The notes under the pieces are model-generated. The model searched no databases. It had not been told where the DNA came from and was given only the letters and a program-made list of their open reading frames with translations. This document shows positions 10,289-54,957 of a DNA stretch of 64,000 nt, in pieces (the stretch's first letter is position 1; each line of letters begins with the position of its first letter). Made by a program: the position numbers and the translations under genes. The stretch is from a virus. The stretch lies in the IMG/VR virus record IMGVR_UViG_3300013233_000167, positions 1 through 64,000 of that record, one strand, 5' to 3'.

Positions 10289-11662
10289 TCACGCAGTCTG
10301 CTTGATCCCTCGATGGTAGGCCGAACAAGCACCATCCAACGAGAGACGAGCATTGTAGGCTCGATGTGTATTAGTTACGAACCATGTGGCATCACCTACC
10401 TCCGACTTCCACACAGCGGGTGTCTCCTCACCGTTAGGACCATGATGCCAAACCGCCTTGCGATCCATAACTTCACTGCGCTCATCGTCCGACAGCCGCA
10501 CCTTACCTCGTTTGAGCACATTCATCGCTGGCACGCGGACCTTCTCGTCCACGAACCTCACCGGACCGAGGCCCGGGGTCGCGTCTAAGTAACGGTGCAG
10601 GGCGCGAGGGTATTCGAGCAAGGGCTCGACCTCCACTTCCGTGACGGTCGCGCGCACCGTGGGGTTGTGTCCCCACGTACGCAGCGCGATTAGCTTTCGA
10701 GACGCGCATCCCGTCTCGTCGATCAACGGCGCGTTGTTACGGCGCGTCCGTTCGATGAACGTCACGACCTTCCGACAACGCTCCCACGTTTCGTCCGTCC
10801 ACTCTCGGAGTGGAGTCGCCTTCATGCTAAGCACGTATCGCGCGGCCTTCTTGCCTTCGAGCAACGGACCGCGCTTGGAACGTCGCGTCGTGGCGATCGC
10901 TTCGCGCAGTGCGGACGACCGCAGATGTGCTCGCAACTCACCGGCTCGCATGTTCACAAGCCGTTGGAACTTCTCGTATAGCTGCGCACGGTCACGACTC
11001 AGATCCGCCTCGGATCCGCTGCGGTTCCGCTGCGGTAAGTGCGCGGGACGCCAGTGCTCTTCAAGATCCGGTGCCTCCCAGATGTCGAACGTCTCGAACA
11101 ACTCAAACGCATCGTCGCCTTCCAAAAAATCGAGCCACGCTTCGTCGATCGACTCCTGAGCGCCACCACCAGCATCCGCTCCCTGCGGGTCCTCAGCGCC
11201 CGTCTGCGATCCGGGTCTCTCGTCATCGGCGGGCTCTTCGGGCGGAGGCTCTTCGCCTCCCGGGGCAGCCGGAACCGTAGGCTGGTCAGGGTCGTCCACA
11301 ATACCGGGAGAACGTACCTCGCCGGTCGGCGTCACGATCAGGGTCTTGACCTTGAACTGACGCTTGGTCTTCGACATCGCGGTCGGCGATTCGTCACCCA
11401 CCGAGATGCGCATGTCGTAGTACGCCTGGAGGTCGTCGCGGTAGAAGGGCGGATCGTCCATGCGATCGTCCGTCTCCGGCTCCTGCGGGGGCGGTCCCTC
11501 ACCGTCCGGCGGACCGTCCTCTCCGTCTCCGGGCTTCGGCTTCTCCTCGTCGTCTGCCTTGGGCTTCTCGTCCTTGCTCTTGTCGTCCTTAGGCTTCGGC
11601 TTCTCCTCGCCGTCCTTTTCGGGCGGCCCCGTCTCCTTCTTCTTGGAGGCGGGGCTTACGCC
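10289..11662 (-). CDS. -1 frame extension of the large acidic protein, with a DUF3140-like domain
   Basis: Open from the slippery site to 10289; LVNMRAGELR...KVVTFIER...LRTWGHNP resembles DUF3140. Confidence 0.8.
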   Translation of the reverse strand, partial: GVSPASKKKETGPPEKDGEEKPKPKDDKSKDEKPKADDEEKPKPGDGEDGPPDGEGPPPQEPETDDRMDDPPFYRDDLQAYYDMRISVGDESPTAMSKTKRQFKVKTLIVTPTGEVRSPGIVDDPDQPTVPAAPGGEEPPPEEPADDERPGSQTGAEDPQGADAGGGAQESIDEAWLDFLEGDDAFELFETFDIWEAPDLEEHWRPAHLPQRNRSGSEADLSRDRAQLYEKFQRLVNMRAGELRAHLRSSALREAIATTRRSKRGPLLEGKKAARYVLSMKATPLREWTDETWERCRKVVTFIERTRRNNAPLIDETGCASRKLIALRTWGHNPTVRATVTEVEVEPLLEYPRALHRYLDATPGLGPVRFVDEKVRVPAMNVLKRGKVRLSDDERSEVMDRKAVWHHGPNGEETPAVWKSEVGDATWFVTNTHRAYNARLSLDGACSAYHRGIKQTA

Positions 11663-11668
11663 TTTTTT
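11626..11668 (-). other. programmed -1 ribosomal frameshift signal
   Basis: In-frame A-AAA-AAG (11668-11662), 6-nt spacer GCGTAA, hairpin GCCCCG-C-CTCC-AAGAAGAA-GGAG-A-CGGGGC. Confidence 0.85.
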
Positions 11669-13749
11669 CCGTCGCCTTCTTCGTCAGCGGCCTCGTACGC
11701 ACGACGCGACGCCGCGCCAGGGTGATCGGATTCCGTGGTGAAGTACCGCTTGAAAATCTGGAGCGCCATCTGCTCGCCGCTCAAGCGCGAAAGGACCAAG
11801 AAAAACATGAGCGAAGCGTTGCTCGGGACTTCTTGAAGGTAGCTGTGGAGCTTCGGGTACACGCGCGCGAGGTTACGCAGGAAGATCTGGAACGCTCTCT
11901 TCGGCTGCCGCGACACCACGTCTTGTGCGTCCGGGATCGCGGAGGCGTCGTCGGCGTTGAGGCCGAAGAACTTGGGCAGCGCCTCTCTCGGGATCGACGC
12001 GATGGCCTTCCGAGTACGCTTGAACACCGCGTCCTGCGGACCCTTGAAGTCGGGCATCTCCCTCTTGAACATCCGCAGCGCCTTGCCCGAGACCTTGAAC
12101 GCGCCCTTGCGTGCGGGCTTCTCCTCTCTGTCGAATCCGAGCGTTGGCGTCTCCTTCTGCCGCTCGATCAGCTCACGCGACAACGAGCCGAAGACTCCCA
12201 TGCGGAGCTGGTGCCAATGCTCGCTGCCCTGCTCCACGTCGGGGTACTGCTCGTCCACCATCTCGCCCGCGCGCTCCAACAGGGCGTCGCGTTCGTCTCG
12301 TTCATCAAGCGCCTCCAAACGCTCGCTGTTGTTCTCCTCGATGAGCGTATCGCGCTCGTCCGTGTGCTCGGTCTCTCCCTCAATGAGCGTCGGGCGCGCG
12401 CACGGGACTCCACACTCAGCCGCGTAGTCACGCAGGTACGACTCGACCATGAGGTCGCGTTCGGCGGGAAGCTCCTCGTACATCTCGCCGAGTGCCGCGA
12501 TCCCTTCCAGAACTTCATCGTACGGATGGGGCACCACCCATGCGGCATCGCGCACCGACACGACCGTCTGGCCGTCCTCGTGCACCACGCCCCACGCGCC
12601 GTAGTCCGAGCTGACCGCTTGGGCCTCTTCGTCCACGGCGTCTTCCACTCCTTCCGACAGACCTTCCTGACGCGCCTCCCACGAGTCACACGTCATCTCC
12701 GGTCCGACACCGTATGCGTACAGCGTGCAGTAGTAGTCATCGCCATGCTTGGCGCGGTAGTAGCGACACATCGCGCACGCACCGTGCGCAGTCTCACCAT
12801 CACCGACGATGCGATAGTTGCGCGGGCGCTGCGGAGCTTTGTCGTACTCGACGTACGCCTCATCGAGCGACTCGACCTCGGGCATCCACGTCCGTTCGTC
12901 TTCCGATACCCAGGTTATGCCGTTCGGGTCTTTGACGCACGCGCCATCGTCAACGCTCACCAACGTCTCGAAGATGTCGTCACCTGCGACCACGCAAAGC
13001 GCCGCGCGGCTGAGTCCGCCTTGTTCGCACACCGCGTCGTACTCATCGCGCGAGTCCGGTAGCAGTGACTCCATGCTCTGCTTCACGCCCGGCAACTTCA
13101 CATCACCGCTATTCTCTCCGCTCGGCTTGTCGGTCTGCAATTCCGGATCCTTCTGCTCCTTCGCGGATCCGGTCGCCGTGCAGTCGAGGATCGTGAACTC
13201 GAACGTCTCTTCTCCGTTGTGCTCGCCCGCTTCGATCAGCTTCTCGAACGTCGTGAACCCCGCGATGCCCGCGCGCATCTTGCGCACCTCTTCGGAGTTG
13301 ATCTTTCCCTCGAAGATAGCGAGGTACTTGTTGCCCTTCTCCAACACCGTCTCGACGAACCGCTCGAAGAGATGTCCGCTCGACTTGATGATCCAACCTT
13401 CCATCTGCGTCGCGGCGACGCCGTTCTTAGAACGTGAGTATTCGGGACGCTTATTGATGAAGTGCGTGGCGAACGCGCGCACATCCTTACGATCAACCTC
13501 TTTCGCGTCGTCCGGGTTTCCGCTTCCATCGGTCGCGTGTGTGTGTTGTGCAGCGAACTCCAAGATCGCGCCGACGTATCCCGGGTGGTGCTTGTTCTCG
13601 TCCTCGGGGATCGCGTCGGGATCGAGCTGGAAGAGCTTCTCTTCGAGACCCTCGCGTCCACGGAGCGCCTTGGTGGCCTTGCGGAATGACTCGCCAATCT
13701 TACGAGCGGCGAACAGGGTGCGTTGATACGTTTTCTTGAGCGAAGACAT
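11656..13749 (-). CDS. large acidic multidomain protein, putative internal head/virion protein (697 aa; about 1153 aa with frameshift)
   Basis: Start MSSLKKTY with GAGGAG RBS; many L/I-x-E motifs; Cys cluster CAMC...C...CDSW. Confidence 0.75.
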   Translation of the reverse strand: MSSLKKTYQRTLFAARKIGESFRKATKALRGREGLEEKLFQLDPDAIPEDENKHHPGYVGAILEFAAQHTHATDGSGNPDDAKEVDRKDVRAFATHFINKRPEYSRSKNGVAATQMEGWIIKSSGHLFERFVETVLEKGNKYLAIFEGKINSEEVRKMRAGIAGFTTFEKLIEAGEHNGEETFEFTILDCTATGSAKEQKDPELQTDKPSGENSGDVKLPGVKQSMESLLPDSRDEYDAVCEQGGLSRAALCVVAGDDIFETLVSVDDGACVKDPNGITWVSEDERTWMPEVESLDEAYVEYDKAPQRPRNYRIVGDGETAHGACAMCRYYRAKHGDDYYCTLYAYGVGPEMTCDSWEARQEGLSEGVEDAVDEEAQAVSSDYGAWGVVHEDGQTVVSVRDAAWVVPHPYDEVLEGIAALGEMYEELPAERDLMVESYLRDYAAECGVPCARPTLIEGETEHTDERDTLIEENNSERLEALDERDERDALLERAGEMVDEQYPDVEQGSEHWHQLRMGVFGSLSRELIERQKETPTLGFDREEKPARKGAFKVSGKALRMFKREMPDFKGPQDAVFKRTRKAIASIPREALPKFFGLNADDASAIPDAQDVVSRQPKRAFQIFLRNLARVYPKLHSYLQEVPSNASLMFFLVLSRLSGEQMALQIFKRYFTTESDHPGAASRRAYEAADEEGDGKKA

Positions 13750-20040: not shown

Positions 20041-20483
20041 TCCACGTCGCCGAGCTGGCGGGCGGCTGCCTCCCGGATCTGCCTCGTGGTCGTACGCACG
20101 AGTGACTTGCCGTTGGGGTTCGACTTGTTCCTCCGTGCCGTCTGCAAGCTCCGCTTCCCCTTCGTATTGCACGGGGCCATGATCTTCACTTGATGGCGGA
20201 AGCCACGCGACGGCACGAACACAGGGATGCTGTACGGGAAGCCATCGTTGTAGCGGTTGCACTTCTCCGCGCGCTGCTCCAGCCACGGTCCAATCTTCCC
20301 GAGACCTGGGATCAGGACCGGCTTCCCGACGCACACCTCGTCGGCGACGTTCTCGATCCAATACGTCAGGAACTTGAGTCCCTGTTCGCTAGAGATGCAC
20401 GCCGAGCCCGCCGCGTCGTCAATCGTGCGGACCAGCGTTTCACGTTCCTCGCCGCGTTTCAAGTAAGGTAAGCTAACTTTCAT
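20037..20483 (-). CDS. HU/IHF-like DNA-binding protein
   Basis: VADEVCVGKPVLIPGLGKI...PVFVPSRGFR matches the HU fold pattern. Confidence 0.65.
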   Translation of the reverse strand: MKVSLPYLKRGEERETLVRTIDDAAGSACISSEQGLKFLTYWIENVADEVCVGKPVLIPGLGKIGPWLEQRAEKCNRYNDGFPYSIPVFVPSRGFRHQVKIMAPCNTKGKRSLQTARRNKSNPNGKSLVRTTTRQIREAAARQLGDVE

Positions 20484-22564
20484 CTGCGTCCGGGCAGTTC
20501 TCCAGTGGTCCGAGCCTCGTAGGGTTTGCTGCTCTCAACAGCCGCTCCCGCGAGTGCAGCTCCCGCGCTCTTCTGCTCGGTCACCTTACCTGCCCGCTCC
20601 TTGTTGATTTTTTTTCGTTCGTCGAGGATCTTCTGCGCGCGGTTGCGCGCGTCGATGAACGCCTCGGCGATCTGTTCGTCCGTGGGCTCGTCCTGACCCT
20701 CATTGAGTTCAATCGTGATCGTGAGCGCCTCCTGTGAGGCATCGCGCAGGACCGTCACATCCTCCCACAGCGCCTTGATTTCAGGATCTTCATCGAAGTC
20801 GTCCTCGAAGAGCTGCGTCGCACTACCCACGACCTCAACCGGCAAGAGCGACGGGTCGATCTGCTGACGCGCACGTTCCGCTGCCTCGTCGGCCGCTAGG
20901 TCAGAGAAGTTGCGGACGTGCCCCTGCAAGCGCGGCGACGCCTCCAGGCATTGCTTCACCCACGACAGTTGCTCCTCTTCCGTGAGCAGCGTCTTGTACA
21001 GCTCTGCCGACTTGTGCTCATCGTCGAGCACCTGAGCCCGCTGCGTAGGCGTCATGGCCGCGAGACCCGCCTTGGTCTTGTCGTCCTTGGCCTCGATGGG
21101 CTTCTCTGAGGTCTGCTGCACGAGACGCAACACCATCTCCTCGGGGAGCTTGGCAAAGTTGATGAGGATATAGATGGCCCACATACGCGCATCGAGCTGC
21201 AAGTCGTTCTTGAGACCGCTCATCGTCTGCACGATCTCATAGCGCATACGCACCAACTCCAGACGCTCGAACTCGTCGAGGTAAGAAATGGGCGACATCT
21301 GAACGAGATACTCGTTGTCGCGCTTCGTCGGATCGTAGCGGTCCTTGTTCTCCGGCGACGCGAGCAACGTAAAGTGCACGTCGAGCAGTTGGCGCGCTCC
21401 GTACACAATCGCACGCTGGATGCGCTTGGCCGAGCGCGCGAAGCGAATGTCCTGTTGTTGGAGCGTCGCCTTCGCGTCGATCTCGCCCTCGAATCCGAAG
21501 TACGCCTTCGGAGCGGACGCGGCACCGAAGAAGGCGTCGCGGAAGTGTTCGAGGTCGTAGATGTCGCCGACGTTGCCGCCGCCTTGCAGGGTCTCGATGC
21601 GCGTGCTTGAGTCGGCGCGGATCGGGTAGAAGATGTCCTCCAGCGGAGTCAGCGGGTTCCACTGCTTCTTGTACGTCGCGCTCGCGGGGTCGATCAGCTC
21701 CGTCTTCTTGAGACGCTTGCGCCACTGGTTGACGTACCGCATGGCCTCGTGATCTTCGAGGCTCCCTACGTCCACGAGGATCACGTTGCGATCCGGGATG
21801 CGGCGCAAGCGGTACATGAGGAGCGAGTCCTCAATAAGCGTCATGGTCCGCCACTCACGAAAGAACTGCTCGCACAGCCCCGTGCCGTAGCCATCCTCCT
21901 CGTTCTTTCCGAGCAAGCGAAAATGAATGTAGTCCCACGGGAAGCTCGTGTCCGCGCCGTCCGGGTGAAGAGCCTTGCGGAACTTCGCACCCTGCTCCTT
22001 GAAGCCGACGAGGCGGCCGTACTTGTCCTCCACGCGGGTCATGTTGTGCTGACTCGCGTAGCGCCAGCCAAGCACGCCCTTCTCGGAAGCGTAGAGCAGT
22101 CGCTGGAACGAGTCGCCGTACTTACACATGCGGCGCGTGACGGCAAAGATCGTGTCCTCGATCTTGCAGTTCTGGAGGCAGGCGTTCCCGGCCTCGATCA
22201 TGTGCCGAGCCTTCGACTCGATCCAGACCCGCACTCCCCTGTCGTAGTCTGGCTGCGTGGACTCCTCGCTGTAGACGGACAGCACGGCGGCCACGAGACC
22301 GAAGGCGTCCATCTCGTCGAAGATGTCGTACCTGCGTCGGCGATCCGAAGCCAAGCTGGAAAGCCGGTCAAGCTCCCGGAACGACGCGAATTCGTCCCCG
22401 CGCTCGTCGAACCCGAAGTCGTAGCTGACCGGCCGTGTCTGTCGTCCGAAAAGTCCGTAGAGCTTCCAGAAAGCAGGGAGACGGTGGGGCTGGGTCGGGC
22501 GCTGAGTCCTCCGGGGGGTGCCCCCCGGCTGCGTCCTTACGTTTCTGGTTTCGTTCTCCGGCAC
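20480..22564 (-). CDS. portal protein, T4 gp20-like
   Basis: EDSLLMYRLRRIPDRNVILVDVG, EDIFYP, IETLQGG, DLEHFR, QDIRFAR. Confidence 0.93.
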   Translation of the reverse strand: MPENETRNVRTQPGGTPRRTQRPTQPHRLPAFWKLYGLFGRQTRPVSYDFGFDERGDEFASFRELDRLSSLASDRRRRYDIFDEMDAFGLVAAVLSVYSEESTQPDYDRGVRVWIESKARHMIEAGNACLQNCKIEDTIFAVTRRMCKYGDSFQRLLYASEKGVLGWRYASQHNMTRVEDKYGRLVGFKEQGAKFRKALHPDGADTSFPWDYIHFRLLGKNEEDGYGTGLCEQFFREWRTMTLIEDSLLMYRLRRIPDRNVILVDVGSLEDHEAMRYVNQWRKRLKKTELIDPASATYKKQWNPLTPLEDIFYPIRADSSTRIETLQGGGNVGDIYDLEHFRDAFFGAASAPKAYFGFEGEIDAKATLQQQDIRFARSAKRIQRAIVYGARQLLDVHFTLLASPENKDRYDPTKRDNEYLVQMSPISYLDEFERLELVRMRYEIVQTMSGLKNDLQLDARMWAIYILINFAKLPEEMVLRLVQQTSEKPIEAKDDKTKAGLAAMTPTQRAQVLDDEHKSAELYKTLLTEEEQLSWVKQCLEASPRLQGHVRNFSDLAADEAAERARQQIDPSLLPVEVVGSATQLFEDDFDEDPEIKALWEDVTVLRDASQEALTITIELNEGQDEPTDEQIAEAFIDARNRAQKILDERKKINKERAGKVTEQKSAGAALAGAAVESSKPYEARTTGELPGRR

Positions 22565-22596
22565 TATTCGTCCTCCGTTATGCGGTGGCGGGCAGT

Positions 22597-25500
22597 CTAC
22601 ACGTTGGACCGTAGGTCATCCCAGGTCTTCCTAGCCGCACCGATGGGCTCCCGATCCGTGTCGGGAGGCCGGGTGTCATTGGCGGCGCGCGCCGTCTGTC
22701 CGACCCGCGTGCGGGGCTCGAACTCCAGATCCGCCACCGACTCGTGCATGGCGCGCTCATCGTTCAGGCAGAGCCACACGACGCCCGCCACCGCGTCACT
22801 CACGTCCTTAGAATTGTGAACGAACACCCCTGCGGTGAGCGCGAAGTTCTCGGTTCCCGGGACCGAGAGGTCATACACGTCTCTCAGGGATCCTTGACGA
22901 ACCTCCACTACGCGATGGTTGCGCCGACGAAGCGCCGCCAACCGGCGTTCGACGAGACTCACGCTGCACTGAAACCTGGCAGCGGCCTCTCGTTGCGTGC
23001 AGCCCGTCTCAGCAATATGTGCGACGATATCTTCGGCCACCACGTCGCCTCGACGCCGAGCCGCGATCGCAAACGCGACGGTCCGTTTGCCAATCTCCGA
23101 CGCCACTCTTCGATGCTTGGCCGATTTGTTGTACTTCGTGATATTAGCGGTTCCGGTGCGCCGACCCAAAACCGTCGCACGCGCGTCCCTCGCCGAAGCA
23201 AACTCAGGGTCGAGATTCAGCTCCGTCATGTTCTTCCGCGAAAAGGCGCGGCCTTCGGGCGACCGCGCATAAGCAACGGCGCGCTCCCTACGCTTTGCCT
23301 CGAACACCGGATCCGCTCTCCGTGCGCACAGCTCCAGCGCGTGCATCCGCGAATGCTCTTCCGCAGGCATCAAGCACAGCGCACGAGGATCATTGTTCGG
23401 CTTCCCCTTCTCGTGGTGCATCACGCCATCTCCGAACTGATTGCCCGTATATCGACCCGGGTACTTCCACCTACCGACCATCCGATGCGTGAAGTGCCAC
23501 TTCTCCGAAGCAGGACACCAATACAATTCATACCCACGCATCCCATCACGATTCGACACCTTGCGATACAAAGGCATCAACGAATCTTCGGGTCGCAAGT
23601 CACCAGCTTCCCTATACGTTCCGTCCCGCAGCATCCAGCGGTGATCGGGTGTGCAGCACACTTCCTGTCCGTTGTCGAGAACCACGGTCACGGTCCGAGC
23701 ACGACGACACGTCAAACGCGGACGCACGGCACGACCCGCCGAGACCTTCCCTTTCGCCATCGTGTACACGTAGATATCCTCGTGCGCGTAATCGCGCGCG
23801 AGTTCCCGAAGCGTAACTTCGCATCCGTTCAACAACGACACCTTCGTATCACCGTCAAAACAGCCCTTTCCTCCCTGCGTGGACTTCTGCGGGTGGTCCA
23901 CCTTGTTCTTGCCCTTGAGATTGATAATGCGCTTCAAATCCAGCACTTCGTCGATGTAGGGCTTGTACTCGTACATTGAGATCCGGCGATCGAAGTGCGC
24001 GCTCCGAAGCGACAGGTAGGCGTCCTCCTTGCGGTCAACGGACTGGTGCCCCGCGTCTATGTGGTGCTTCTTGAGGATCTGAATCGAGTCGCTCGACTGA
24101 AACTGGTCGTACGTGACCTTGGCGATCGAGAAGATGCGGTTGAGAAACAAGATGAATGCCCGCACCTTCGAGAGATCGACCTCGCCTCCGTTGGGAGCCC
24201 TGACCCGCAGCATGAGGTCGATGATGATAAATGGGTTCGAGACGGTCGAGACCAACCCCTCGGCGTCGATCCTCTCCACCTTCACCGATCCGGCGACGTG
24301 CCCCATAGCGATCCCGAGCGCGTCGTCCGTGAGCCCGATATCAACATGAATGAAACGCGGGCACTTCGGATTCAGGCGCGGGACGTGCTTCGACCCCACC
24401 ACGCGCACGACGCGCTTGGCGATGAAGCTCTCTTCGATCAGCGAGTCGTCGTCGATGTCGCAGATGATCTCGGTACGCGAGAACGGATGCCGCATATTCT
24501 CCGACACAGCCTCGTGTACTGACGCTCGGTCTCGAATCAGCGGCGAGACGTTGAACGTGGCGACGCCCGCCATGTCGCGCAGAGCTTGGTCCAGGTCTTC
24601 GTCGAACGACTTCCGCAGCTCCAACGGCACGTCGATGACTCGTGCGCCCTTACGAGGCTCCTCGCCGGGTTCCAGAATCCGCGACGAGGATCGACGATCA
24701 CCAACCTCGACGTTGAAGCCCGGAAACGTATAGCGGCTCTTCGGCTTACATTCCCACAGCGCGTAGTCCGAGACGAACGTATGCTGCGCGTGGTCACCGC
24801 CCATCACCGTCCGCAAGTGCTCTTCCAGGAACGAAGTCTGCGCGTTGCGCGAGCTGATGAGAAACAGCATCCCGGGAAGCACCCCGCCGGGTCGGCCAAA
24901 GCGCGACTGGAGGCGTGTGTACGTCGCGTTGTAGAGATCGTACGCCTGCCCGATCGTCTTGCCCGTCTCCTTGTCCTCCTTCTCCATCATAAAGTTCGCC
25001 TCGTCCATGAGGAAGGCGAACAGGTCGAGACCGAGAGCGTGTCCCGCGCGAGAACCAGCCATGACCTGAATCTTCTTGCGAGCAACCGGCTCGAAGTCGA
25101 TCGGCGCATCTTTCCTCGGATCGCGCGGACAGTGTTCGGAGAAGTAATCGCTGTTGTCGATGTAGCCACGCAGTTTGTAGAAGCCAGCGCCCGTCGCTTG
25201 CGTGAGCGTCTTCGAGTAGACACCGAACACGATCTTCTCGTCGGGCAGCAACCCGTAGTACCTAGAAGCGTCGCGCAAGCACGACAGCACGCAGAGCTTG
25301 TAGCCCATCGCCACGTCCGACACCGTGGTCTTGCCAGTTCCGATTGCACCTGTGAGCACCCACTCGAAGACGGGCGATCCAGGACGGAAGACCTCGTACA
25401 GATCTTCCTTCCAACGTGGGTGCAGGAACGACGCGGCACGGCCGAAGTAGTAATCGTCCTCGATGAACTCCTCGATCGTTGGTGGCTGTCGCAGGTAGTC

Positions 25501-25746
25501 CACCTCCCACAACAGGCTGTGCAACGACGTGTCCGCCTGACCGTCCACAATCGCTTCCGCGAGCCACTCCACTACGAGCGCGCGTTCAGGTTTGGACAGC
25601 CCGTTGAACAGATCGCGGTCTCCGTACAACGTCTCCTCGGCAACGCGGTTGAAAAGCTGTACGTGCTCGTCGCGCAGCACGCGGGTCGCTTGAATAGAGC
25701 CCTTTCCTGCGCGGATGACCTTCGGCTTGGGTCTACGATGCACCAC
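22597..25746 (-). CDS. terL: terminase large subunit with intein
   Basis: Walker A GAIGTGKT, Walker B FLMDEAN, ISS, nuclease HVDIG and DQFQS, KVDHP...SKDVSDA; lies upstream of the portal. Confidence 0.93.
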   Translation of the reverse strand: MVHRRPKPKVIRAGKGSIQATRVLRDEHVQLFNRVAEETLYGDRDLFNGLSKPERALVVEWLAEAIVDGQADTSLHSLLWEVDYLRQPPTIEEFIEDDYYFGRAASFLHPRWKEDLYEVFRPGSPVFEWVLTGAIGTGKTTVSDVAMGYKLCVLSCLRDASRYYGLLPDEKIVFGVYSKTLTQATGAGFYKLRGYIDNSDYFSEHCPRDPRKDAPIDFEPVARKKIQVMAGSRAGHALGLDLFAFLMDEANFMMEKEDKETGKTIGQAYDLYNATYTRLQSRFGRPGGVLPGMLFLISSRNAQTSFLEEHLRTVMGGDHAQHTFVSDYALWECKPKSRYTFPGFNVEVGDRRSSSRILEPGEEPRKGARVIDVPLELRKSFDEDLDQALRDMAGVATFNVSPLIRDRASVHEAVSENMRHPFSRTEIICDIDDDSLIEESFIAKRVVRVVGSKHVPRLNPKCPRFIHVDIGLTDDALGIAMGHVAGSVKVERIDAEGLVSTVSNPFIIIDLMLRVRAPNGGEVDLSKVRAFILFLNRIFSIAKVTYDQFQSSDSIQILKKHHIDAGHQSVDRKEDAYLSLRSAHFDRRISMYEYKPYIDEVLDLKRIINLKGKNKVDHPQKSTQGGKGCFDGDTKVSLLNGCEVTLRELARDYAHEDIYVYTMAKGKVSAGRAVRPRLTCRRARTVTVVLDNGQEVCCTPDHRWMLRDGTYREAGDLRPEDSLMPLYRKVSNRDGMRGYELYWCPASEKWHFTHRMVGRWKYPGRYTGNQFGDGVMHHEKGKPNNDPRALCLMPAEEHSRMHALELCARRADPVFEAKRRERAVAYARSPEGRAFSRKNMTELNLDPEFASARDARATVLGRRTGTANITKYNKSAKHRRVASEIGKRTVAFAIAARRRGDVVAEDIVAHIAETGCTQREAAARFQCSVSLVERRLAALRRRNHRVVEVRQGSLRDVYDLSVPGTENFALTAGVFVHNSKDVSDAVAGVVWLCLNDERAMHESVADLEFEPRTRVGQTARAANDTRPPDTDREPIGAARKTWDDLRSNV
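22813..23862 (-). mobile_element. intein (350 aa) with HNH endonuclease in TerL
   Basis: GKG|CFDGDTKV...CTPDHRW...VYDLSV...VFVHN|S; internal HRMV...VMHH...NNDP.AL....EHSRMH. Confidence 0.95.
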
Positions 25747-27038: not shown

Positions 27039-27425
27039 CTAGTAGTCTTTCTCCCACAGATTATGAGAGGTTTGAAAACGGACAGCGAAGTCTGTACGCG
27101 CCGGGTGCATCTCGCCCGTCGTTGGGCTGCGATACTCCCGAGGGTTCCGCTCGTAAGTGGTGAGGGTGCCGACGTTGCAGAAGACGACCGAGCCCCCCGG
27201 TGATCCGAGGGCGAGGCGCATCCGAGCGAGCAAAAAGTCCCAGATCGCCTCCGTCTCCGCGTACGTCAGTCCGAACTCCTCCGCGATTGCCCGCGTGATG
27301 GGCGTCTTGGAGATTTTCGCAGCATCGTCTGCACTAGGTCGTCGAGCAAGAGCATTCCTAACACCTCGCCGCTTGGGCGAGTCATCGTCAGGATTGGTCC
27401 CTTTTGTGGTTTTGGTTGAAGCCAT
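27039..27425 (-). CDS. HU/IHF-like DNA-binding protein (start uncertain)
   Basis: SKTPITRAIAEEFGLT...VVFCNVGTL...R.PREYRSPTTGE...VRFQTS. Confidence 0.8.
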   Translation of the reverse strand: MASTKTTKGTNPDDDSPKRRGVRNALARRPSADDAAKISKTPITRAIAEEFGLTYAETEAIWDFLLARMRLALGSPGGSVVFCNVGTLTTYERNPREYRSPTTGEMHPARTDFAVRFQTSHNLWEKDY

Positions 27426-28933
27426 TCGAGAGTCTTGGCGCGTATCAGCACGTACGTTTTCCGTCGGTTGCGTGAGAAAATCAAGAGTGGGTGGGCATTT
27501 TCCCAGGTCTCGGCCTGCGCGACGCACTGATCCCACCACGCCCACAGCGGGTACTTCGGCTGCTCGAACATGCGCTCCATCTCGCGACAGCCCTTGTCGC
27601 CCTCGATCTTCTTGCAGTTGTGGACAACGATCCCGCCCTCGATCACGTAGGTCTCGTCCTCTTCCACACTCAGATTCCAAACCTCTCTCCTCCCTTCCGT
27701 CAGAGACCACGGACTACGCAGGCGCGTGAAAATTCGACTGCGGCGCAGATCATACACAGGCTCAGTGCGCTCGTCAGACAAACACGACGCAGCTCGATGG
27801 TCAGCGAACCCTCCGTTACCCCACACCGCTGAACGGAAGCGATCCAAACTGCTACGTGCGACCTGTACCGAATACAACGGACGCGGCCTCTTCCGCTCAC
27901 CACTCGCAATCAGCGACACACCAACCCTAGAGAATACGCCAAGCCGTAGCAACGCAAACTGTACTTCCAACGCTAAGCGACGGCTCACAGTCTCACTGCG
28001 CGCAAACCCCGGCCCACGGCAACCATTGCCCTCGAAGTATCCGCGAAGCAACGCTGCGACCAAAGACTTCGACCGCCACACATGTAGGCCCAGCCGCTTC
28101 TGTGCACTCCCCGAACCCATCCACGATTTGAAACAGTGAGCCAGCGCCGTCGAGGAGACGCTCACTGTCACTGCTTTCGTCTCCTCGTATGCGTAAACGA
28201 CCGACGCCTCTCCGAACACCTGCTCCAGCATCCTCCTAACGAACTCGATGTACTCCGTCTCCGCCTCGTGAAACGTCCACGTCACACTACCCACCTCGGC
28301 CCGGCCCTCCGCCGCATACAGACCCAACAGGCGCATGAGGTCTTCGTCAACACGAACGCGCGAAACTGCAACGGGCCGGGCCTTCGGCCCGCGACTCTTC
28401 GCAGGATACGTCGGCACACGTAGCCACTTTGCCTGACTGTCGGCTCTATTCGATAGCAAGCTCATGTGCGATAGCGAACGCGCTTCCCTCGCAGGCCGCC
28501 ACCCACCATCGAAGTCTTCCACAGGATGCGAAGCGGTGACAACGATCGGCTCCGTCATCGCCTCACACAGCAGCTCACCCGACGTAGAAGTCTTCTTGCT
28601 GAAAACATCGGTAACTTTCCTAAACCGCCCGCGATGTGTCAGAACACGATCCCCCACCGACAACGACTCGATAGGTCGGAACCCCTCACGAGTCATTACC
28701 AACGTACCGCGACCGAAACACTCGACCGCGAACGGCCAATCGCCCGAGTGGCGCGGATTCACGTCGAGGTCACCCTTCCGGTCCCACCCCTCCATCGGTG
28801 CAACGATGGTGCTCTTCGGACGCATCGGCAGCGTCGTGTAATGCGCGTCGAGCGGCGTAGCGAACCACCAATGCGAGAGCACTCGGCAGCACTCCAGCAT
28901 GAACCTCTGACCTTTGCCGCGCCCCTCAGCCAC
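27266..28933 (-). CDS. PD-(D/E)xK Holliday junction resolvase-like nuclease with intein
   Basis: KGQRF, GDL, spliced VE-CK motif, WWDQC, PLLIFSRNR. Confidence 0.85.
   Translation of the reverse strand: MAEGRGKGQRFMLECCRVLSHWWFATPLDAHYTTLPMRPKSTIVAPMEGWDRKGDLDVNPRHSGDWPFAVECFGRGTLVMTREGFRPIESLSVGDRVLTHRGRFRKVTDVFSKKTSTSGELLCEAMTEPIVVTASHPVEDFDGGWRPAREARSLSHMSLLSNRADSQAKWLRVPTYPAKSRGPKARPVAVSRVRVDEDLMRLLGLYAAEGRAEVGSVTWTFHEAETEYIEFVRRMLEQVFGEASVVYAYEETKAVTVSVSSTALAHCFKSWMGSGSAQKRLGLHVWRSKSLVAALLRGYFEGNGCRGPGFARSETVSRRLALEVQFALLRLGVFSRVGVSLIASGERKRPRPLYSVQVARSSLDRFRSAVWGNGGFADHRAASCLSDERTEPVYDLRRSRIFTRLRSPWSLTEGRREVWNLSVEEDETYVIEGGIVVHNCKKIEGDKGCREMERMFEQPKYPLWAWWDQCVAQAETWENAHPLLIFSRNRRKTYVLIRAKTLEWLQPKPQKGPILTMTRPSGEVLGMLLLDDLVQTMLRKSPRRPSRGQSRRSSD
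27617..28720 (-). mobile_element. intein (368 aa) with LAGLIDADG endonuclease in the resolvase
   Basis: VE|CFGRGTLV...TASHP...LLGLYAAEG...LLRGYFEGNG...VWNLSV...VVHN|CK. Confidence 0.95.
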
Positions 28934-37678: not shown

Positions 37679-39736
37679 TCAACTGTCGTCCTCATCCTCC
37701 AGGTCCGCCGACACGCCTTTCTTGTCGAGCAGGTACTTCTCCACACCCCCGGCCAACGACACCGCCTTGAGGGCAGCGTTCGCGCCGGAGCAGAAGCCCG
37801 GGTCACCCATGCGGTCGAACCAGTCGCCCCGCTTGAAGGCCCCGTCGGACCACGGGACGAGGATTCTCCCCGGTCCCTTGGCCTTCTTGATGATCCCGGC
37901 TTCGGTCAGCAGGTGTTGAGCGGTCAGCTCCACGCTCGGCCCGTGCGTGAAGTCCAGCACCCACTCCGTCCGCCGGTGAGGCGGCGCGAGTCGGCACTTG
38001 TCCGTGATGGTGGAGATCTTGTAGCCGGTGGGCGCGATGCCCTTCGCACGCTTCGCGGGCAGCCTGCCGATCACCCGATTCGCCACCCGCTGAGACGCCG
38101 CGAACTTCACGGCCCGGCCTCCAGTCGTGTCGGTCTGCGGGCCACCCCAGCTAGAGAAGCCTCCGATCTTCGAGCGGTTCTGGTTGATCCACATGACGTG
38201 GGCGCGGACCTTGGCGATCTCCCGAAACATCTTGCGGCAGCCCTTCGACATGATTCGCGCGTGGAGGCCAACGAACGAGTCTGTCATCTTCCCCTCCAAC
38301 TCGTCCTTCGGCACAGCCGCCGCGATCGAGTCCCACACGATAAGCGTCGGTGCGCCGGGGTCGCGGGTCTTGAGGTCGTTTAGGATCGCCCACGTCGCCT
38401 CCCAGCCCTCTTCCGCGTGCGCGGGCGCGAGGTAGATGAGACGCTCCGGGTCGATGCCGACGTTAGCCATCTTCGCAGCGTCGAGCGCGACCTCGTAGTC
38501 GAGAAGCACCGGGATACCGCCCGTCCGCTGACACTGACGAATCGCCATGTGCGCAAGCGCCGACTTGCCGCAGTTGTGGATCACAAGACCCTCAGCGATG
38601 TAGTTGCGGTACGGGTCCTCCATCTTGATGTCGTAGGTAGGCTTGATACCGACCGGAGTGATCGACACCACGCGGTCCTCCACGACCACGTACCTAAGAT
38701 TGCTGTCAGTCTCTAACGCATGTTCGCGGTTGTGCGCATCACCATCCACGACGACGAGGTTGTCTCTGTCGTCGTTCGACCAGTCCTCGTCGATATGGTG
38801 GACGTGCTGATCGGGGCGTAGGAACTTCATGTCGAAGAAGTCATCCGCGTCGAGACGGGCCTTGTACTCGTCGAGCGTCAGGCCGTTCATCTCGGCCTCG
38901 ATGATGGCGCGAGACATCGACGGCTGTGCAGCCCTCGCTCTCGCGTGGTTCGGATGAAATCTGACCGACAAATGCTTTCGGAAGTTTGATCTGGAAGCGG
39001 GGTCGTCGGACTGCCAATGCGTCTGGTTGTGCAAGTACAGCACGTCACCAACCGACACCTCCTCCAACGAACGGTAGCGACCCCCTACGTACATCTTGTG
39101 ATCGAGCGTCGCTGTTAGCTGCGCACCTGACTCGGTAACGACTTCCAAGCACTCGCGCTCTCCGGTCTTCACCACGTCAATGATCCGCGATTGCACGATG
39201 CGATGATCGTCGTTCATCGCAGGCGCGTGGAACGTCGCACCTTCGGGTGCAAAGCGATTCTTGCCCTTGCCCGGCACCGCGATTCGATGGAAGCGTTCGT
39301 ACAGACGCTCGATCGTTCCGCCCTTGCAGTTGATGAGTTTCCCGTCCGCTTGACGCACCTGATAGCCGATGAACGTCTCGGCCCAAGAGCATCCTTCGTC
39401 TCCGTACACCTCACTCGCACGCCCAACTGCCCAGCCGCCACCAAGCACGCGGTCAAGATCTGGGAAGCCTGACGGGATCCACTCCTTCACTTCGGAGAGC
39501 GAGTCTGCTTGTCCCAACACCGTCACCACGCTGTCGGTCTTCGTGCCGAGACGCTTCTTGATGGCCTTGACCATCGAGTCGGTATCGGACGGCTTCGCCT
39601 TGCGCGAGGTCTTCTTCTTCTTACTCGCGGCTGCGCCGGACTTTGCGGGCGACCTTCTTGCGTCCTTTTTTCTTGACGGTCTTTTTGCGGCCGTCTTTGC
39701 GGCGTGGGAAGTCTTCGCTTTGTCCTTGAGGCCCAT
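37679..39736 (-). CDS. recA: RecA/UvsX recombinase with intein
   Basis: SGFPDLDRVLGGG, spliced P-loop GDEG-CGKS, LDYE, VWDSIAA, INQ.R, TGGRAVKF. Confidence 0.93.
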   Translation of the reverse strand: MGLKDKAKTSHAAKTAAKRPSRKKDARRSPAKSGAAASKKKKTSRKAKPSDTDSMVKAIKKRLGTKTDSVVTVLGQADSLSEVKEWIPSGFPDLDRVLGGGWAVGRASEVYGDEGCSWAETFIGYQVRQADGKLINCKGGTIERLYERFHRIAVPGKGKNRFAPEGATFHAPAMNDDHRIVQSRIIDVVKTGERECLEVVTESGAQLTATLDHKMYVGGRYRSLEEVSVGDVLYLHNQTHWQSDDPASRSNFRKHLSVRFHPNHARARAAQPSMSRAIIEAEMNGLTLDEYKARLDADDFFDMKFLRPDQHVHHIDEDWSNDDRDNLVVVDGDAHNREHALETDSNLRYVVVEDRVVSITPVGIKPTYDIKMEDPYRNYIAEGLVIHNCGKSALAHMAIRQCQRTGGIPVLLDYEVALDAAKMANVGIDPERLIYLAPAHAEEGWEATWAILNDLKTRDPGAPTLIVWDSIAAAVPKDELEGKMTDSFVGLHARIMSKGCRKMFREIAKVRAHVMWINQNRSKIGGFSSWGGPQTDTTGGRAVKFAASQRVANRVIGRLPAKRAKGIAPTGYKISTITDKCRLAPPHRRTEWVLDFTHGPSVELTAQHLLTEAGIIKKAKGPGRILVPWSDGAFKRGDWFDRMGDPGFCSGANAALKAVSLAGGVEKYLLDKKGVSADLEDEDDS
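38573..39391 (-). mobile_element. intein (273 aa) with HNH motif in the RecA P-loop
   Basis: EG|CSWAET...TLDHK...HVHHIDEDWSNDDRDNL....HNREH...TYDIKM...VIHN|CGKS. Confidence 0.93.
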
Positions 39737-52632: not shown

Positions 52633-54957
52633 CTACTTATCTTCGGTGCGAAGAAAATAATCACGGAGCGCCTGCTTTCGTGCGTCCTCAGTACGCAGGC
52701 GCGCGTACGCGAGGAGCCGGTTGAACCGGGCGAAGTCACGGTCGCGCTTCTCCGCGATCCGATCCACCGGCATCTCTGCGGCCAGATCAGCGCGCCACTT
52801 GATGATTTTTACCGAGAGCCCCGCGACTGCCTTCCCGATGTTCAGTACGGCCTTACGATTGCCCTGGAGCGACTCAAGCGCGCGCGTCACGTAGTAGGTG
52901 GTGAGTCCCGACTGCTCCTTGAGTGCCGTCTTGTTGATCCACACTTCGAGCACGTTGGTCTTCTCGGTCGCATACGCGGGCTCGACGCAGCTCTCCGAGA
53001 ACGTGCGCCAGACGTGCACTATCTGCGGCTTCGCTTTACCGGGCTCCTCGATGGCTTGGCGGAGCGCCTCACGATCGACGGTGATCGGCACGCCTTCCTT
53101 GATGGAGCGGCGTTCGAGCAGACCCGCCGAGTGTAGTCGGTTCAGGATGACGCCCACTTGATCGGGGCTCAGTGCCGAGACCTTCTTGGCCGTGATCTCC
53201 TGCGAGAGTGCGTTGCGGTTCGTACGCATCGACTGACCGGGTTGCAGCATGGCGTGCAAGTGCTCCCACACGAGTTGGTAATGCTGCCACGGAGGGTTCT
53301 CGTTCTCGATCAGACGCATCTGCCACTCAGCCGAGCCTTGGTCGCCAAGCAGAATCGTCTCCGACACCTGACCGTCACGACCCGCGCGACCGATCTGCTG
53401 CGTGTAGTCCTCCAACGACCCAGGGAAGCCAAACAGCACGACGGTACGGATGTCTGGCACGTCGATGCCCATGCCGAACGCCGTGGTGGCGCACACGATG
53501 CGCGCACGCCCATTCTCGTCCGCGAAGTCGTCCTGAACTTCAATGCGCCTCTTGTCCGGCAGGCCCGCGTGGTACGCGACCGCGATGCCGTCGCCGTGGA
53601 TGTCCTCGCAGATCTCCGCCAGTTTGTGCGATCCGTTGCGCGACGAGCAGTAGACGAGGTGACGACCACCGCGCACGTCCATGTCGCGCGCTAGGCGGCG
53701 GAAAGTGCTCCACGAGTTGTTGTAGCCGCCGTCAATACCGCCGTCCTCGATCAAGTAGCGGAGGTTGTGACGAATCGGATCATCGACGAGGATCGTGACC
53801 TCTTCGCGGTCGAGCCCTAGCGACTGCACGATGTCTTCGACAACGATAGGAGTCGCGGTAGCCGTCATGGCGAGCACCTGGGGCCGCTCCTTTCCGTCGC
53901 TCAGCGAACGGATCAGTCGGTGGATGTGCATGTAGTCGGGACGGAACTGGTGCCCCCACTGTGAGCAGTTCGCTACGAGGATGCCTTCCGCGAAGTAGTT
54001 GTGATCGCCTTCGACCGTGAGCGAATACACGCGCGGACCGTCTTCGCCACCTCCGCCGCGTCTTCTAGGATCGCTTGCGATGAGAGTCTCAACACCAACC
54101 ACCCGAGACGCTTCAACTTGCGATCGCGCTTCCGGTCGAGTCGCGCCAGTGTCTCGGCTCGTTGAGCATCCGCGTAGCAAGTCTTGTCGCAGTAGCGCGC
54201 CTTCTCCCGAGCCCTTCTTGACGAGAGCTTCTTTCGGCAGTGCTCGCAACGCTTCATCACCGACCTCAACGTCTTTCGCTTCAACATAGCCTCGATGCTC
54301 CAACCAGATCTTATGGTCGCCCGTCACGTCCAAGACTCTCCCGTCAGCGAACCGCAAGCGAAAGAGTCCTCGACCTCCGACGCGAACAACTGCGTCGTTC
54401 AAAACACAACGTTTGACTTGCCTGCCGTCGCGGTCGCAAGCCACTACGAGGTCACCAACGTGCAACGTCTCGATCGCAACCTCGCCGTTCGGTGTACGCA
54501 CGCGAGTACCTGCCGGATGGCAACAATGCGCTTCATCGACTGCCACGATCGAAACGTCGGCTCGTTGGATGGTCGTAAGAAAGCTCCGCGCACCGATGCG
54601 CTCTGGTGAGATGTAAAGCAGCTTCGTCGAGCCGTTCACGAATCCCTCGACCGCATCCCACTGCTCGTCGTCGTCCATGATGGAGTTGATGCACGCGGCC
54701 GGGATGCCGCGCGACACCGCGTCGTCCACCTGATCCTTCATAAGCGCGATCAGCGGCGATACCACGATCGTCCCGCCTTCCTCCAGGAGTGCGGGAAGTT
54801 GGTACAGCAGAGACTTGCCGGTGCCGGTCGGCAGTACAGCGAGCACGTCGTCTCCTTCGCCGATACACGTCATCGCAGCGCGTTGGCTCTTGCGGAAGGA
54901 TTGGTAGCCCCACCGCGCGCGCAGCACTTCTCGCGCTTCGTCGAGTGTAAACATCAC
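52633..54957 (-). CDS. recQ: RecQ helicase with intein
   Basis: WGYQSFR, LPTGTGKSLLYQLPA, SPLIALMKDQV, DEAHC/CSQWGHQFRP, TATA, YHAGL, AFGMGID, QQIGRAGRDG. Confidence 0.95.
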   Translation of the reverse strand: MMFTLDEAREVLRARWGYQSFRKSQRAAMTCIGEGDDVLAVLPTGTGKSLLYQLPALLEEGGTIVVSPLIALMKDQVDDAVSRGIPAACINSIMDDDEQWDAVEGFVNGSTKLLYISPERIGARSFLTTIQRADVSIVAVDEAHCCHPAGTRVRTPNGEVAIETLHVGDLVVACDRDGRQVKRCVLNDAVVRVGGRGLFRLRFADGRVLDVTGDHKIWLEHRGYVEAKDVEVGDEALRALPKEALVKKGSGEGALLRQDLLRGCSTSRDTGATRPEARSQVEASRVVGVETLIASDPRRRGGGGEDGPRVYSLTVEGDHNYFAEGILVANCSQWGHQFRPDYMHIHRLIRSLSDGKERPQVLAMTATATPIVVEDIVQSLGLDREEVTILVDDPIRHNLRYLIEDGGIDGGYNNSWSTFRRLARDMDVRGGRHLVYCSSRNGSHKLAEICEDIHGDGIAVAYHAGLPDKRRIEVQDDFADENGRARIVCATTAFGMGIDVPDIRTVVLFGFPGSLEDYTQQIGRAGRDGQVSETILLGDQGSAEWQMRLIENENPPWQHYQLVWEHLHAMLQPGQSMRTNRNALSQEITAKKVSALSPDQVGVILNRLHSAGLLERRSIKEGVPITVDREALRQAIEEPGKAKPQIVHVWRTFSESCVEPAYATEKTNVLEVWINKTALKEQSGLTTYYVTRALESLQGNRKAVLNIGKAVAGLSVKIIKWRADLAAEMPVDRIAEKRDRDFARFNRLLAYARLRTEDARKQALRDYFLRTEDK
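53968..54522 (-). mobile_element. mini-intein (185 aa) just after the RecQ DEAH motif
   Basis: DEAHC|CHPAGTRV...VTGDHKI...VYSLTVEGDHNYFAEGILVAN|CSQWGH. Confidence 0.93.
53973..54257 (-). CDS. out-of-frame ORF nested in the RecQ intein: Zn finger plus truncated Vsr/DUF559-like endonuclease
   Basis: MKRCEHC...YCDKTC then DRKRDRKLKRLGWLVLRL...I; GAGG 6 nt before ATG. Confidence 0.7.
   Translation of the reverse strand: MKRCEHCRKKLSSRRAREKARYCDKTCYADAQRAETLARLDRKRDRKLKRLGWLVLRLSSQAILEDAAEVAKTVRACIRSRSKAITTTSRKASS

Follow-up and report, generated by a model that had tools for sequence, protein, structure and literature searches.

In the dnaX gene of E. coli, the heptamer A_AAA_AAG with a stem-loop about 6 nucleotides (nt) downstream sets the ratio of two isoforms, tau and gamma, that have a common N-terminus. 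IS3-family elements make a shorter N-terminal protein from the unshifted reading and a longer fusion, orfAB, from the shifted one, and in IS3 the zero-frame stop adjoins the slip site. The orfA/orfAB pairs of IS911 and IS3 combine a heptamer of the A_AAA_AAG type near the end of the upstream open reading frame (ORF) with a downstream RNA structure (PMC4066793); dnaX is a validated frameshift case in the same source, where A_AAA_AAG, combined with a stimulator, ranks in the top three -1 motifs for efficiency in E. coli (PMC4066793). In phages, a -1 shift near the end of the first ORF gives short and C-terminally extended forms of the gpG/gpGT tail chaperone and of the T7 capsid proteins 10A/10B, and fused single-gene versions of such frameshift genes exist in some phages (PMC10885494). 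Here we describe a gene of about 3.4 kb with an A_AAA_AAG signal on the minus strand of IMG/VR virus record IMGVR_UViG_3300013233_000167 (74,460 base pairs (bp), CheckV completeness 53%), of which the first 64 kb, hereafter the window, were analysed. We consider it highly probable (roughly 0.85) that a programmed -1 ribosomal frameshift at this heptamer yields forms of 697 and 1153 amino acids (aa) from the one gene.

The upstream frame, ORF A, ends GAC GGA AAA AAG GCG TAA, and its heptamer stands in register with the zero frame (Table 1), as a sequence-only reading of the window had noted. Six nt 3' of the heptamer follows a hairpin that runs GCCCCGCCUCC-AAGAAGAA-GGAGACGGGGC on the RNA; the sequence-only reading had placed it correctly and given its stem 10 bp, where we count 11 with one C.A mismatch. 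Its fold energy is -25.9 kcal/mol (z = -3.1), and none of 200 shuffled sequences folded equally well. The hairpin is not a terminator, because no U-tract follows it, and no promoter-like or terminator-like site was found between ORF A and ORF B on the coding strand. In the -1 frame a stop lies 7 codons 5' of the slip codon, after which the frame is open for 457 codons to the TAA at 10289; the reading past the slip site begins GVSPASKKKETGPPEK... and leads through a K/D/E/P-rich linker into the 390-codon ORF B, with no ATG, GTG or TTG ahead of the ATG at 11461. The earlier description of this frame thus holds, and so does the arithmetic of the two predicted product sizes. The start of ORF A was set at its ATG instead of GTG 13962 because the homologues all begin MSS.... 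Runs of at least six A or T are rare in the contig (15 per 74 kb, both strands).

Compared with the described systems, the site is identical to that of dnaX in its heptamer and close to it in spacing, whereas the outcome differs: the shifted dnaX product is shortened by an immediate -1-frame stop, while the shift here would add 457 aa. No upstream Shine-Dalgarno-like stimulator, known from dnaX and IS911, is clearly present here, since the strings AAGG, GGAGG, GAGG and AAGGAG found 6-11 nt 5' of the heptamer in the window and in three relatives (L002, L009 and L154, see below) lie in Glu-rich coding sequence and cannot be separated from codon content. IS3-family frames overlap only shortly, whereas here a disordered linker of 67 codons leads to the -1 ORF; the proteins are also unrelated, this being a phage gene in which Pfam, PHROGs and NCBIfam scans found no transposase domain. 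From gpG/gpGT and T7 10A/10B the gene differs in family, size and place, standing beside thyX and not between tail tube and tape measure, nor is it a capsid gene. The sequence-only reading was right to remark that the gene looks unlike tail chaperones and unlike major capsid or tail genes. The mechanism is canonical, and the gene family is uncharacterised and lies outside the tail-chaperone and capsid contexts usual for phage recoding, beyond which it adds a well-supported case.

Conservation in related phages, which the sequence-only reading had suggested as a check, was observed for heptamer, stop and hairpin alike. Three independent relatives with DNA were available, namely the 156-kb IMG/VR contig L002 (53-64% aa identity) and the two JGI metagenome contigs L009 and L010 (about 68%), and all of them show [GGA/GCA] AAA AAG NNG TAA followed by the same stem. 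From the heptamer through the end of the 5' stem arm (loop and 3' arm uncounted) 22 of 24 nt are identical, against 55-76% in the flanking coding DNA. Hairpins of this AAAAAAG type gave fold energies of -25.9, -32.9 and -24.3 kcal/mol (z = -3.1, -4.4 and -2.8); ten pairs are invariant across the four sequences, and where the window has its C.A mismatch, L002 forms an A-U pair. Among the proteins, each of the ten ORF-A homologues (46-100% identity) terminates in [G/A]-K-K-x-stop; K695 and K696 are invariant columns, while the rest of the acidic tail varies. Two gene calls for ORF B (P0060 and P0065) start VSPGS, at the slip site itself, which implies a GTG overlapping a TGA stop exactly at the putative slip position.

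The same data bear on the possibility of a homopolymer indel made in assembly or sequencing, or of a decaying pseudogene, the true gene then being one ORF with A7. Homopolymers are error-prone and distant relatives do have single ORFs; however, the run is A6 in the independent assemblies IMG/VR 3300037478, Ga0307379 and Ga0307380 as well as in Logan contigs of relatives from three metagenome studies, and the same state recurs at the protein level in about ten clusters, with the positions of stop and hairpin conserved. The Logan contigs span 11609-11700, and the indels listed for them fall only at 11695-11712 and none in the A6 run, ten further indels being outside those listed and the contigs being those of relatives, at a low share. 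The A7 that the sequence-only reading had named as a danger to its proposal is thus absent among the listed indels of these relatives. Since these independent contigs show no listed indel in the run, we take an assembly error to be excluded in practice, and give the indel or pseudogene explanation next to no weight.

Between slip site and conserved domain, the linkers of the four loci measure 201, 183, 165 and 147 nt; every length is a multiple of 3, and all are open in the -1 frame and K/D/E/P-rich. The -1-frame stop stands 7-9 codons 5' of the slip site, and no start codon precedes the ATG at the start of the domain (window and L002). The multiple-of-3 indels and the absent start codon are what is informative on linker translation, and they argue against two ordinary adjacent genes, in which ORF B would be started independently at ATG 11461 and the heptamer and hairpin would be incidental, or the hairpin would serve mRNA stability. 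For such an arrangement speak the ATG itself, which is retained in several relatives and has GGAG 12 nt upstream, and the gene callers, which annotate two genes. Yet heptamer, stop and hairpin are far better conserved than their flanks, and distant homologues have one ORF. In about 27 homologues, 800-1400 aa in length, the N-terminal region of ORF A and the domains of ORF B are collinear in one polypeptide; in L021, L022 and L156 these are single open frames of about 975-1025 codons, and the inter-domain linkers of fused homologues resemble the transframe linker. Fused homologues have M, T or S where the window has Met 11461, which marks this position as a domain residue and not a dedicated start. 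We accordingly hold independent initiation as the sole source of ORF B to be very improbable. The long frameshift product would thus reproduce the domain order of the single-ORF relatives, taken here as the ancestral architecture of the family; fused homologues are a recognised indicator of frameshifting used by predictors of programmed ribosomal frameshifting (PMC10885494). In L022 (7731-11558) the fused gene is followed by a MoxR-like AAA ATPase and a protein with a DUF2201_N metallopeptidase domain.

When 1.84 billion representatives were searched with a profile, 1036 matched, among them short ORF-A-like proteins (P0134-P0136, P0138 and P0139) that end [A/P/V]-N-P-x-stop. In L154, the DNA that encodes P0138, the end reads TCA CCA AAC CCT CGG TAG with the heptamer A_AAC_CCT in register, followed by a 5-6-nt spacer that holds the stop and by a different GC hairpin (-29.9 kcal/mol, z = -2.65), and the -1 frame continues ...PEPEPPTDRIDDPPFYRDDLQAFYDMQIV. 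Here DRMDDPPFY has Ile in place of its Met, and the first ATG after it is already within the conserved domain, whose first residues precede any start codon; because of this Ile, independent initiation cannot make the domain in L154, and the ORF B of the gene caller (P0070) begins inside it. The same site bears on transcriptional slippage, in which RNA polymerase would add one A in the A6 run and a subpopulation of A7 mRNA would encode the 1153-aa fusion. The homopolymeric A6 run of the window would permit this, and an A7 transcript would yield the identical junction ...GKKGVSP; A6 is short, though, for efficient polymerase slippage, which is known from runs of about 8-9 or more. The run is moreover exactly A6 followed by G in every relative, the proteins of the relatives end KK and never KKK, and the conserved hairpin sits at the canonical ribosomal spacing of 6 nt. 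A_AAC_CCT holds no long homopolymer and nevertheless shows the same spacing and a hairpin, which makes ribosomal slippage the better common mechanism; we judge the transcriptional route improbable, although somewhat less so than a separate start of ORF B. RNA runs were searched for the locus, and none was listed with it.

A tree of the N-terminal domain places all the split forms, with four fused ones, in a single clade (starred). In it the AAAAAAG group makes up one branch (Shimodaira-Hasegawa-like approximate likelihood ratio test support 82), while the NP-x forms are interleaved with fused ones and do not make one clade, so that at least four changes between split and fused are required. 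Both slip sites (GKK and PNP) seem to lie within one ancestral linker motif, because the fused proteins P0021 and P0030 carry KKPNPF in the linker. One gene family thus appears in three states, a single ORF, a predicted A_AAA_AAG frameshift and a predicted A_AAC_CCN frameshift, and since these have interchanged at least four times it lends itself as a natural system to the study of how such sites originate in a linker between domains and of the isoform ratio they set.

According to the proposed mechanism, the majority of ribosomes would read ORF A through to its TAA and release the 697-aa form, with the N-terminal domain, the Cys4 module and the helical region. A fraction would pause at the 11-bp GC hairpin and slip one base back on A_AAA_AAG, the two lysine tRNAs re-pairing on AAA_AAA, and would then read the -1 frame via the flexible linker into ORF B. 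In the resulting 1153-aa form, the PPFYRDD domain, the helical domain resembling DUF3140 and the promiscuous module of about 85 aa at the C-terminus would be added. The data show the anatomy of the signal, its conservation and the collinearity with fused homologues, whereas the slippage itself and the ratio of the products, fixed according to the sequence-only reading, are what we infer. A programmed -1 shift with the two products, as that reading had proposed, is strongly supported by the conserved heptamer, stop and hairpin, the multiple-of-3 linker indels, the fused homologues and the different heptamer of other split relatives. For annotation this means that the two ORFs should be joined.

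Several points weigh on the other side. The stem pairs are invariant inside the AAAAAAG clade and thus show no covariation. Beyond the TAA the zero frame is stop-poor too, the linker being purine-rich, and linker openness alone is for that reason weak evidence. A_AAA_AAG is perhaps less shifty in hosts with tRNA-Lys(CUU). In this particular phage, some ORF B might in addition be started independently at ATG 11461 with its GGAG, and the case is built on comparative sequence data. A slippery efficiency for A_AAC_CCU was not found in PMC4066793.

Table 1. Coordinates in the window of the predicted frameshift gene, its signal and domains, and of the portal gene.
Feature	Position	Strand	Remark
ORF A, zero frame, predicted short product, 697 aa from ATG	11656..13749	-	homologues (n = 10) start MSS.../M... 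and end [G/A]KKx-stop
Conserved N-terminal domain, ORF A residues 1-285	12895..13749	-	AlphaFold2 pLDDT about 80-90
Cys4 module, C325, C328, C341, C354, HiPIP-like	12670..12798	-	four Cys invariant
Putative slippery heptamer A_AAA_AAG, X_XXY_YYZ register	11662..11668	-	identical in L002, L009 and L010
Spacer GCGTAA, 6 nt, one sense codon GCG and zero-frame stop TAA	11656..11661	-	
Hairpin, 11-bp stem GCCCCGCCUCC/GGAGACGGGGC, 8-nt loop	11626..11655	-	one C.A mismatch; GC-rich
Linker, -1 frame, K/D/E/P-rich, 67 codons	11462..11662	-	start-codon-free
ORF B, -1 frame, 390 codons from ATG	10289..11461	-	C-terminal part of the predicted long product
'DDPPFYRDD...TPTGEVR' domain	11297..11461	-	most conserved part of the family; 50-65% identity to fused homologues
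Helical region, weak DUF3140 match	10727..10972	-	E 1.3e-6, 29.1 bits against a cut-off of 25; 5/32 members match
C-terminal module, about 85 aa (VWKS...VTNTHRAY...)	10292..10546	-	absent from Pfam, NCBIfam and PHROGs
T4-type portal	20480-22564		window

Scans of Pfam, PHROGs and NCBIfam gave no functional assignment for the gene, and cultured-phage GenBank records held no DNA or protein match to it or to the C-terminal module. The GTDB genomes scanned with an ORF-B profile yielded no relative, and AlphaFold2 models of ORF A and ORF B (mean predicted local distance difference test, pLDDT, 72 and 70) no convincing PDB fold match (Foldseek, VIA-wide). Weak rows pointing to an H-NOX fold (probability 0.5-0.6, root mean square deviation about 15 A) were discarded as unreliable. 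The N-terminal domain also heads giant proteins of 1300-3246 aa that are without Pfam domains. Behind it, the CxxC...C...C module may be an iron-sulphur domain in a phage protein: HiPIP (PF01355) is matched by four of the 32 family members, the protein of the window not being one of them, with a best E of 3.2e-5 and 24.6 bits (cut-off 22), and the A1 profile reached PDB 1hlq with an E of only 0.3. ORF A holds helical regions as well. No mention of DUF3140 was found in the literature.

In viral contigs the C-terminal module of about 85 aa occurs alone, in proteins of 93-170 aa, or at the C-terminus of nucleotidyltransferase, Zeta-toxin/AAA, ART-PolyVal, ParB, RyR and other proteins (loci L003-L006 and L023-L033, besides the window), a distribution that marks it as a promiscuous, mobile domain. 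Frameshift access to the stand-alone modules was considered and rejected, as ordinary starts are seen, and a search of the ESM Atlas with the module gave no usable match. The family, of about 1000 representative-cluster matches, is thus an uncharacterised one that includes this module and a possible iron-sulphur domain.

The sequence-only reading had called the product a putative head protein, a label that our searches do not establish. Pfam, PHROGs and NCBIfam gave nothing relevant to any known head, scaffold or internal protein family, PDB searches were unconvincing, and a BFVD Foldseek match to the HSTV-2 'prohead protease' is weak (114 columns, E 6e-3). The gene adjoins thyX and small ORFs, a thyX synteny also kept in L021, and was not found in a head-morphogenesis module, the portal/terminase block (20480-25746) being about 7 kb away. 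The product does contain many [L/I]xE motifs, after which gp21 of T4 cuts: the long form has 28 where 12.2 +/- 3.1 are expected (about 2.3-fold), with z = 3.8 for ORF A and 3.7 for ORF B against -1.4 to 2.0 for the other 22 of the 24 contig ORFs. Ten of the sites are conserved, some of them in predicted disordered segments, and an excess is seen in some relatives including giants (z up to 6.4; proteins P0142, P0152 and P0015), not in all. A complete relative (G001:52930-53388, L157) encodes a gp21-family prohead protease (Peptidase_S77, E 1.3e-16). Given the [L/I]xE excess and this protease, a capsid-internal protein processed by a T4-type prohead protease of the phage is our best guess at the function, plausible although unproven and somewhat doubtful in our estimate.

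In its build, the protein is like the T4 internal head proteins and Alt and like the polyvalent proteins (Iyer et al. 2017, PMC5512222), with several domains arranged as beads on a string; the enrichment of [L/I]xE in both ORFs and the protease of the complete relative recall cargo processed by T4 gp21, and the C-terminal module co-occurs in other viral proteins with ART-PolyVal, Zeta-toxin, ParB and nucleotidyltransferase domains. Unlike in these, neither sequence nor fold searches found similarity to T4 IPI-III, Alt, MuF or the named polyvalent-protein domains, and Pfam and NCBIfam scans detected no enzymatic, anti-defence or LPD/MuF-type domain. A broader and unlikely picture would see in the family a new class of capsid-targeted cargo polyproteins of T4-like phages, cut at [L/I]xE by a gp21-type protease and delivered with the DNA, in which frameshift sites at two linker positions in the starred clade, some possibly evolved independently, tune the copies bearing the C-terminal domains including the mobile module.

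The contig has a GC content of 61% and most of its genes on the minus strand, and its proteome is not acidic (median isoelectric point 6.7). Besides the portal, the window encodes a terminase with intein, ThyX, RecA with intein, a family-A DNA polymerase, DnaB, SbcCD-like proteins and ParB. We read the source as a large, uncultured, T4-like bacteriophage. The idea of a haloarchaeal virus was dropped because of the median isoelectric point and the bacterial type of the RecA, PolA and DnaB replication genes.

Searches with a 19-nt pattern of the frameshift signal returned only unrelated matches in genome contigs and, in viral contigs, only a known relative plus one unrelated giant gene, L019:3323-8913 (IMGVR_UViG_3300045988_117362). 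It reads A_AAA_AAG CGG TGA GCCCCG..CGGGGC, it has 936 open codons upstream in the zero frame and 928 downstream in the -1 frame, the latter starting AVSPAPQPGPGP..., and it is a second candidate for -1 frameshifting that is not homologous to the family described here. Within the window, a second A_AAA_AAG in X_XXY_YYZ register was counted by hand at 39665-39671 (minus strand), near the N-terminus of the intein-containing recA-like gene. The intein load of the window is unusually high, with four intein/Hint-containing genes, all on the minus strand: terminase-like (22597-25746), PD-(D/E)xK nuclease (27266-28933), RecA (37679-39736) and DEAD helicase (52633-54957).

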